In this document: positions 53,275 through 54,492 of the stretch, one piece after another
How positions within the stretch are numbered: position 1 is the stretch's first letter
Layout: each line of letters opens with the position of its first letter
Assembly: GCA_963555755.3 (NCBI GenBank)
Contig: OY820905.2
Span: forward strand, 3,168,001 to 3,232,000
Source of the DNA: Nitrospirales bacterium
GTDB lineage: Bacteria; Nitrospirota; Nitrospiria; Nitrospirales; UBA8639
Direction: 5' to 3'
DNA length: 64,000 bases
The notes under the pieces: generated by a model
What the model saw: only the letters and a program-made list of their open reading frames with translations
Database searches by the model: none
What the model was told of the DNA's origin: nothing
Program-made: the position numbers and the translations under genes

Positions 53275-54249
53275 TCAGCAACCGTGATTAAAGTCAAGGG
53301 TTGAATATTGATTTGGGTTCCATGCTGTTTGGGTTTTGACCATCGTATTAAGAATGACCAGAAGTTTTCGCATACAGGCGGTGAGGGCCACTTTGGGTTT
53401 TTTCCCTTGTGCAATCAGGCGTTGATAAAATGTTTTGATGACCGGATTAAATCGTGATGCGGACAGGGCCGCCATGTAGAGGGCGGCGCGGACTTGGGCA
53501 CGTCCTCCCCAGACCCTTCGGTTGCCGCGAACGTTTCCGCTGTCGCGGTTTAAGGGGGCAACGCCCACCAGCGTGGCGATTTCTCTTCGGTTGAGCGTTC
53601 CGAGTTCGGTCAGGCTACTGAGGAGATTCATTGACAAGACGTTGCCCACCCCCGGCACACTTCGAAGGAGCGAATCTTTCTCTTTCCAGCCGGGGGTCTG
53701 TTTAATAATCTCGGCAATATGACCTTCGATTGTGTGGAGCCGTTTTTCCAGGGAGGCGATATGGGCGTTGATATCTTTGCGGATCCATTTGGCCGCTTGC
53801 TGGAGGTGGGTTTTTTCCGCCGTCTGCATGGCAAGCAACTGCCGTCGCCGTGTCACCAAGGCCGTCAATTCCTGGGTGGTGGCGTCTTTCATGGGCCGGA
53901 CCGCCGGCTGGATCGCGGCCCCGAAGCGAGCCAAGATCCGGGCGTCCAGGGCATCCGTTTTGGCCAGGGTGCCCATGGCCTTGGCAAAGTCCCGCACCTG
54001 ACGGGGATTCATGACGACCGCCGGCAACCCGGCGGTGGTTAAGGCCGCATACAAGAGTGTTTCCAGGCCCCCCGTGGCTTCCATCACGATGAGCGCGGGG
54101 TGAAGGGCGTGAAGCCGGTCCACCAGCGAGGCGATGCCGACATCGTCGTTGGCAACCGACCAGGGGATCGAATCGGAATCGTCCGCCACGTCCAATCGAG
54201 CTTTACAAATGTCGATACCGATAAACAATTCTGAGGATTTTGATTTCAT
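53275..54249 (-). CDS. IS110-family DEDD recombinase/transposase
   Basis: [20 protein letters not shown] (DEDD), [14 protein letters not shown] (catalytic Ser), ACMRKL. Confidence 0.95.
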
Positions 54250-54492
54250 CGCTCTGTCTCCCAACCTTGTTGATACGGGCTTGGTGTCCCAGGCAACCGT
54301 TCGGGTTCATCAGAGAACGGGCATGACGACCTGCGCTGAGTCACGGGCTGATTCCCATAGGGCAAACGGTCTATCATGCCAGGATTCACAATACCGTGAG
54401 GGTACAGCCTTTTCCCTACGTTGGCTATGCCCTCTTCAGACAAGAGGCAGCTCGGGTGAGTTGGCCTACAACCCTTCCTTGCATTATACAAG
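53277..54492 (-). mobile_element. IS110-family element (IS621-like, CT core)
   Basis: No TIR; CT dinucleotide (minus strand) at both junctions; empty sites GCATGCCCTGAGTCTTTCC at 6792-6810 and 43609-43627. Confidence 0.93.
54255..54478 (-). ncRNA. Predicted IS110 bridge RNA
   Basis: 5' stem-loops, then a loop with TGCCCT and GACTCAG matching the target and a loop with ACGGTTGC and ACAAG matching the circle junction; ends approximate. Confidence 0.85.

Follow-up and report, generated by a model that had tools for sequence, protein, structure and literature searches.

We describe an IS110-group element in which a left-end bridge RNA of the IS621 type very probably steers the recombinase to the CT of TGCC-CT-GAGTC in a hairpin module carried by a MITE. 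The element lies on the minus strand (53277..54492, core to core) of the window, i.e. the whole stretch of 64,000 nucleotides that was analysed. The RNA-guided reading is favoured by 12/12 shared junctions, by guides that covary with their targets, by a two-loop fold with compensatory changes and by an intact enzyme. An initial annotation of this DNA had proposed that an intact IS110 recombinase is directed to a multicopy repeat by a bridge RNA of the IS621 type, and the tests run here support that proposal as far as sequence can tell. The element is a new, intact-looking member of the IS110 bridge-recombinase kind, whose mechanism and landing in repeats are already known.

The cores of the window element are located at 54491-54492 and 53277-53278 (minus strand), with 1212 bp between them and sharp ends common to the genome copies. 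The motif and core coordinates of the initial annotation were all re-read as exact. The host genome is of the nitrite-oxidiser type and contains 12 near-full copies with 91-100% identity besides a single 3' fragment, hence 13 landings. Left junctions follow AAAAGCATGCC-CT in 12/12 cases and right junctions precede GAGTCTTTCC in 12/12, one near-full copy being without right end and the fragment without left end. Inspection of the flanks of all genomic copies found no copy in unrelated sequence, every junction falling in one target. None of the 11 complete copies has an internal stop, and eight of them differ mutually by 1-10 nt. The window copy shows 36-41 nt differences to those eight, mostly in one patch in the 5' coding region, and several copies are mosaic. 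The traits of the IS110 family are present: terminal inverted repeats are absent, the core insertion is short, and removal of the element with one core restores the empty site, as compared to 72 exact empty sites. The layout is that of the IS110 group and not of IS1111, with a left end of 241 nt and an ORF reaching the right core; of the 3-bp subterminal inverted repeat, two of three pairs are kept.

The empty target is found as 72 exact 14-mers and 81 exact 11-mers in the genome. Within the window the 14-mer occurs twice exactly; with up to two mismatches there are 5 matches as compared to 0.47 expected, two of the five being the end of an unrelated 45-copy IS. Both empty targets reported previously, with cores at 6799-6800 (plus strand) and 43619-43620 (minus strand), were confirmed. 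The first belongs to an empty subtype-A MITE (6708..7005, plus strand) with the 5-bp duplication TATAT, and the second (43602..43645, minus strand) to a MITE without right end. Two copies are probably dead or dependent: E9 (G000:C1:344232-343008) lacks 6 nt from the outer stem of its donor loop, and in E12 (G000:C1 2149021) both donor guides are changed and the right end is interrupted by another transposase gene. In public run X7, a 7533-nt contig contains the element right end, then five correct target bases, then a flank that is absent from the genome and has no empty counterpart there. By its sequence, this right end would mark one more insertion, in a different strain and in agreement with the guide.

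The left non-coding end (54250..54490, minus strand, 241 nt) contains the predicted bridge RNA, which would run from about 54476 to 54250, its start being placed by a -10 box. This box, TATAAT preceded by TG (54483..54488, minus strand), is part of a promoter predicted only on the circle, where the joined ends would bring it 17 nt from a -35 box TTGACT (53292..53297, minus strand). The resulting TTGACT-17-TATAAT is sigma70-type by its letters, and TTGAC is found at this place in 75/92 related elements. On the minus strand of the left end, there is no internal promoter. A circle junction, right end joined to left end, was not found in the contigs of 8 public runs (X1, X2, X9, X10, X3, X4, X6, X7), and contigs drop rare forms. 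The genome's one exact donor 14-mer (G000:C1 near 735340) was considered as a circle and rejected as a chance match within a protein-coding gene; matching the joined donor ends exactly over 14 nt, it is a possible pseudo-donor for off-target recombination. In the RNA runs X9 and X10, contigs extend over the element and into the upstream MITE and none over the porin side, which DNA carry-over or another strain could explain.

The target-binding loop (54320..54380, minus strand) is formed by an outer stem (54380-54368 with 54331-54320) and an inner stem (54356-54354 with 54347-54345). Its left target guide (54359..54366) matches target positions 4-9 with TGCCCT (54364-54359), i.e. over 6 nt, with mismatches at positions 1 and 3 and a wobble at position 2. 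Counted from an invariant G at 54367, the left guide has 8 nt to the core end and is 2 nt shorter than the 10 nt of IS621. The right target guide GACTCAG (54336..54342) matches core and right target over its full 7 nt. It is followed by the handshake guide CG (54334..54335), of which C pairs with donor position 7 (G) and G wobbles with donor position 6 (T). The donor-binding loop (54252..54315, minus strand), delimited by the consensus fold and pair counts, contains a left donor guide ACGGTTGC (54293..54300) identical to the left donor at 53285-53278, and a right donor guide ATCAACAAG (54266..54274) of 9 nt with a 2-nt bulge, which pairs with core and right donor (54490-54486). For the right donor guide, ACAAG at 54266-54270 had been given previously; this position is exact and is extended here to the bulged 9-nt guide. 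In the donor-loop handshake guide GU (54264..54265), G pairs with target position 7 (C). Dinucleotide shuffling of the left end, repeated 20000 times, reproduced the two target-guide words in order in 7 cases and the two donor-guide words in order in a single case.

Relatives of the element were collected in order to compare guides and targets. Among 181 loci fetched, 104 had both ends recognisable at >=45% identity, and 95 remained after removal of duplicates. A donor guide could be located in 93/95 (L020 and L028 were dropped), and with truncated L112 dropped 92 elements were kept, corresponding to 62 distinct target-guide sets. Ends of relatives were found by donor-like patterns, so that counts on the donor side are partly built in, and the target side was unused in selection. 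Relatives are kin and not independent; shuffle and Fisher figures therefore overstate significance, even though their direction is plain. Over the 62 sets, agreement of guide and own target amounts to 4.48 of 5 non-core positions for the right guide (shuffled 2.28, maximum 2.97 in 10000) and to 4.27 of 5 for the left guide (shuffled 2.79, maximum 3.15 in 10000). With one element per distinct right guide (n=29), the right-guide match is 4.34 as compared to 1.70 shuffled. Target guides thus covary with the target, the left one by identity and the right one by reverse complement. The left donor guide equals the donor in 59/62 sets; six donor variants occur and the guide follows each of them, donor-side agreement being partly built in. 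The target-loop handshake base and donor position 7 are C:G in 60/62 sets and T:A in one (Watson-Crick 61/62); the donor-loop handshake base and target position 7 are G:C in 57/62, A:T in two, G.T in two and mismatched in one (Watson-Crick 59/62). The 3-bp subterminal inverted repeat covaries as well, position 1 agreeing in 49/62 sets as compared to 31.6 shuffled. Close relatives with 81-89% protein identity have three other guide sets and sit in matching other repeats (L003/L103, L198 and, in part, L004). Relatives that fit their own guides poorly are L004, L016, L084 and L137. The guide fits the most abundant candidate target in three of only four genomes, too few for a claim. The host genome contains 25 exact GTTCCTGAGCC sites, the repeat targeted by L003 and L103, and these are unoccupied.

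RNAalifold on 61 sequences (L047 left out) gives a fold of two loops, each with internal loop and inner hairpin. The 24 named pairs are paired in 96.8% of cells and 16/24 show two-sided changes, as compared to 33-47% paired for slid controls. The outer helix of the target loop is 98.2% paired, with two-sided changes in 10/12 pairs. Loop-edge A and G residues are invariant or nearly so among relatives; in IS621, the corresponding residues are flipped-out or syn (PMC11208158). The initial annotation had suggested folding the left end, and this succeeded for the consensus; as a single sequence, the left end folds no better than shuffles (z -0.81), the target loop alone (z -2.83) being the sole part that beats them. 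As the single-sequence fold is unconvincing, the structure rests on the alignment. It had also been asked whether guides fall into paired stems. The consensus fold places the target guides in the open loop; single-sequence and consensus predictions both have the donor guides partly folded on one another.

The left-guide register varies within the 62 sets, with 8 nt in 8 sets, 9 nt in 40, 10 nt in 3 and an ambiguous register in 11. In the 8 short-register sets, positions 4-9 match in 7-8/8, position 3 in 3/8 and position 2 in 0/8. In a protein tree with 56 members (6 short rows were dropped), 6 changes among 7 rows are needed to explain the short register, at least 4 of them forced by well-supported branches; it is therefore likely that this register arose more than once. 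A 5' extension of the left end (54385..54478, minus strand) is about 60 nt longer than in most relatives, the distance from core to donor guide being 190 as compared to 94-132 in most of them. Conserved structure in the extension is unsupported, its consensus fold being weak (-4.6 kcal/mol). Its hammerhead-like look was considered and rejected, as the core is not conserved and there is no Rfam match (only sX15, E 0.31, on the wrong strand). In compact relatives of the Dehalococcoidia type (L005, L009, L012, L025, L039, L106 and others), about 8 nt separate the -10 box from the start of the target loop. The predicted bridge RNA of these relatives is without a 5' stem-loop, and core and donor guide are 94-98 nt apart, as compared to 190.

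The target TGCC-CT-GAGTC lies within a short imperfect hairpin; the genome has 199 hairpins of this CTGAG..CGAAGG family. The guide-matching 11-mer is present in 12/12 occupied hairpins as compared to 75/187 empty ones (Fisher p 3e-5). The same hairpin variant is found in 45/115 genomes of the family, and 31/92 related elements, many from Dehalococcoidia records, land in this hairpin family. The module is situated 12 bp inside the inverted-repeat end of a MITE of about 215 bp that has 5-bp duplications, inverted ends GGGNCTGTTGAA / TTCAACATTCCC and no ORF. The right MITE end is present in 172 copies, and the 5-bp duplication in 38/56 long subtype-A copies. As DNA, the hairpin is weak, folding no better than shuffles (z 0.0 to 0.9). 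The targeted variant begins with GCATG, is without the GTAG/CGTC tag of REPs and has a perfect stem of 4 bp as compared to 6-13 bp. The initial annotation had called the target a host REP-like hairpin. A multicopy hairpin it is, but with a weak fold, within a MITE and not a classical REP; the target is better named a hairpin module inside a MITE, even though 'REP-like' is loosely fair. Three PF05598 elements have ends that resemble those of the MITE without being identical, and 6-bp-like duplications; among the matches listed, there was no autonomous partner with the exact MITE ends. A blastn search of the MITE core against E. coli genomes for identity with ERIC gave no match. At the same position of the MITE, an alternative hairpin module occurs in 23 copies beginning GCATGCCC.CGCGGAG (e.g. 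G000:C1:438038, 2519147). It has the left target in common with the targeted module but not the right one, and no copy of the element was found therein. A second IS, with 45 copies and a zinc-finger transposase, inserts at ATAT, also inside the MITE (G000:C1:3591601-3592811, 4004106-4005183; window 13028, 39223), and once in the same MITE as an IS110 copy. We take this IS to be IS1595-like by motif.

The guide might be needed and yet not suffice, the fold of the target hairpin or the neighbouring MITE end acting as a second determinant in the manner of ISPpu10. All occupied sites lie in the hairpin module beside a MITE end, the hairpin family is shared by the 31/92 related elements including the Dehalococcoidia records, and for ISPpu10 a target stem-loop gate has been described (10.64898/2026.03.19.712850). 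Nevertheless, we consider a second determinant unlikely. Since 75/81 exact 11-mer sites already lie in the hairpin, the guide alone predicts the pattern. Moreover, the hairpin is weak, its partner arm is situated 3' of the target and not 5' as in ISPpu10, and 61/92 relatives, among them the close L003 and L103, insert outside the hairpin family with matching guides. It is improbable, more so than a second determinant, that the copies multiplied mainly inside a moving MITE or by gene conversion, with the IS110 machinery now idle. The MITEs around nine of 11 full copies have kept their 5-bp duplications intact, the MITEs of E6 and E9 are each other's nearest and these two copies differ by 3 nt, the mosaic copies would fit gene conversion, and the contigs of the 8 runs are without a circle junction. 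However, chance is expected to give one such reciprocal pair among 11 (P 0.21). The remaining occupied MITEs have different empty MITEs as their nearest, and one of them is identical to an empty one over 214 nt, as expected from separate insertions; enzyme, guides and promoter boxes are intact. That the protein alone recognises the repeat, the guide-like words being leftovers, would suit a left guide match of just 6 nt, but is hardly credible given guides that follow their targets over 62 sets with 29 distinct right guides, word pairs met by chance only 7 times and once in 20000 shuffles, and RNA guidance shown for the family (PMC11208160).

The recombinase ORF (53275..54249, minus strand) encodes 324 aa with PF01548 and PF02371, and scores 209.6 bits with NF033542, the NCBIfam model for IS110 RNA-guided transposases (cut-off 140). 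The enzyme is distant from IS621 (E 3e-35, 125 bits); ISCro4 and IS621 are its sole solved relatives by sequence. In an alignment to IS621 (8wt6) and ISCro4 (9t56), D13/E57/D99/D102 and S237 align with D11/E60/D102/D105/S241 of IS621. The DEDD/serine recombinase appears intact.

The element itself has no stop codon for this ORF. The stop TGA (53275..53277, minus strand) consists of the core T and the first two target bases, GA. A target-supplied TGA is found in 11/11 full copies and in 13/92 related elements, all 13 with a target beginning with GA. Right guides encode CT-GA in 8/8 guide sets with a target-supplied stop as compared to 23/54 others. On the circle, the recombinase would be read on for 81 codons, across the left end, as far as a TGA that overlaps its own start codon. 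This frame is open in 6/7 guide sets with a target-supplied stop as compared to 9/50 others (Fisher 8e-4, from about three independent lineages only). Selection on the read-through frame was considered and is not supported: in the close clade random change leaves the frame open with P 0.39, and only 20/61 changes are synonymous. Early stops interrupt the frame in L011, L198, L110 and L138. C-terminal fusions are routine on bridge recombinases (10.1101/2025.05.14.653916). As the evidence for selection on the frame is weak and such fusions are routinely used, a neutral reading of the missing stop is more likely than selected read-through. It is doubtful, even more than a second target determinant, that the recombinase exists in two forms as a state switch, the inserted form ending at the target-completed stop and the circle form reading 81 codons on or having no stop, and that together with the short-left/long-right guide loop this makes a natural variant of bridge recombination. 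If true, the two forms would provide a built-in check of correct landing and a switch between inserting and excising states, with the right guide locked to CT-GA. Target-supplied stop codons are known in other IS families. For IS110s, the literature searched, including the available text of 10.1101/2024.04.26.591405 and PMC12288879, gives no account of one, and the state-switch reading with a short-left/long-right guide loop was not found in it.

The window copy joins two different MITE subtypes. Its left flank (54493..54516, minus strand) consists of a subtype-B MITE end and the left half of the hairpin module; its right flank (53091..53276, minus strand) consists of the right half of the module (53276-53259) and a subtype-A MITE body with right inverted repeat. 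Empty sites are A/A in 62 cases, B/B in 14, mixed in none and unclassified in 12, while the window copy is B/A. It also lacks a target duplication, which 9/11 full copies have. The window copy is likely a rearrangement scar, left when two copies or two targets recombined and the intervening DNA was lost. Single IS copies that link distant loci have been described (PMC13423834). A reciprocal product or a duplicated flank was not found in the genome. The joined flanks may be an assembly mis-join; the private alleles of the window copy and the junction of MITE end and porin gene are found in public runs without differences and at about single-copy depth, and no contig spans the whole element.

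The porin gene next to it (54512..55858, plus strand; PF04966) belongs to the OprB family, and its first codons are replaced by MITE end and element. In a homologue (L183, 66%), the start Met is located 7 residues before a common PP, which corresponds to the position of the element core here; judged from this one homologue, the OprB-family gene has apparently lost its own first codons. The OprB frame is open through the whole left end of the element on the opposite strand (54134-55858, plus strand; 574 aa ORF). The closest start codon in this frame, TTG at 54479, falls within the element and has no obvious ribosome-binding site. Mobile elements abound in the region. A frameshifted ISNCY-type transposase (47827-49296) and an ISAs1-type transposase fused to an upstream domain (57340-59087, minus strand) lie within 6 kb. 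Two small ORFs at 51581-52260 (minus strand) look like a RelE/HigB-HigA toxin-antitoxin pair and have no NCBIfam match; a broken inverted second copy is located about 18 kb away (approximately 33550-34850).

IS110-family elements aimed at other mobile elements include IS4321/IS5075 (IS1111 group) and ISEc21, which the element described here resembles in this respect. The subterminal repeats of IS4321/IS5075 are long, and the targets of these elements are Tn21 ends. ISEc21 is directed at IS3 coding sequence (10.1101/2024.04.26.591405), whereas the window element targets a module 12 bp inside a MITE end. ISPpu10 and ISPpu9 of Pseudomonas putida are likewise IS110 elements that insert into numerous copies of a single intergenic palindromic repeat (10.64898/2026.03.19.712850; PMC12288879). 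ISPpu10 forms a junction promoter, as predicted for the window element; its structural gate is a 5' stem-loop, paired with the left target, whereas here the sole hairpin partner is 3' and weak. The GTAG/CGTC REP families (PMC3733652) are also short multicopy extragenic imperfect palindromes, at times nested in a larger palindromic repeat, but the targeted variant here is without their tag and has a perfect stem of 4 bp only. The main text of PMC3733652 does not mention Nitrospira, and literature searches pairing Nitrospira with IS110, or IS110 with MITE targets, revealed no paper on the element by title or abstract.

The closest likeness is to IS621 and ISCro4/IS622 (PMC11208160, PMC11208158, PMC13626964; PDB 8wt6, 9t56). 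Shared with these are the DEDD and serine enzyme, the left-end bridge RNA, the CT core, the right donor TGTAT, the 8-nt left donor guide and the bulged 9-nt right donor guide, which is discontinuous as A157-G165 of IS621 (PMC11208158). Conserved bulged A and G residues at the loop edges, the handshake bias, a junction promoter (here predicted) and a target in a dispersed palindromic repeat are likewise shared. The left target guide of IS621 has 9 nt (A50-U58), and that of the window element is shorter. This lowers the likeness to the loop size of IS621 and not family membership, because diverse members pair over 8-14 nt (PMC11208160). The footprint has 11 bp in both, divided 4+2+5 here and 7+2+2 in IS621, and the right target guide is naturally 7 nt and fully extended as compared to IS621. 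Further differences are the longer 5' extension, an ORF that runs into the core with no right non-coding end and a stop from the target, and a target that is a hairpin module in a MITE. Handshake pairs before and after exchange are one and two plus a wobble, as compared to one and three in IS621. Longer natural right guides, pairing over 8-14 nt, concordance of guide and target and repeat targeting among IS110s are published (PMC11208160). In the text passages searched, we found no description of a shortened left guide.

The cycle we propose is taken from IS621-type systems (PMC11208160, PMC11208158, PMC13626964). Weak read-through transcription of an inserted copy would supply RNA and enzyme, and the element would be copied or cut out as a circle; whether the IS110 circle is single- or double-stranded is debated (10.64898/2026.08.31.748434). 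By analogy with IS621, the joined ends would build the TTGACT-17-TATAAT promoter, boosting RNA and enzyme, and the two loops would hold target and circle while cleavage and exchange of the top strands take place at the CT core. The handshake bases, which form a single Watson-Crick pair before the exchange and two together with a wobble thereafter, would favour insertion over excision. The 11-bp footprint would be shifted to the right (4+2+5), the intergenic repeat with its 81 exact 11-mer sites would offer many harmless landing places, and a target with GA after the core would also complete the enzyme's own stop codon.

A specialist can be expected to be interested rather than surprised, as the element adds two small twists to a known mechanism, the shortened left guide and the stop codon borrowed from the landing site. 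The missing stop is a practical trap when the element is cloned as a circle junction, and may also act as a control step. The search for genome-editing tools now extends to bridge recombinases, of which most tested ones are close to IS621. The window element is a distant, intact and recently multiplied bridge recombinase whose ends, target, donor and guides are known exactly. As the guide loop of this element shows, a rightward slide of the 11-bp footprint is possible, and the close relatives of the element represent a natural reprogramming series on one scaffold.
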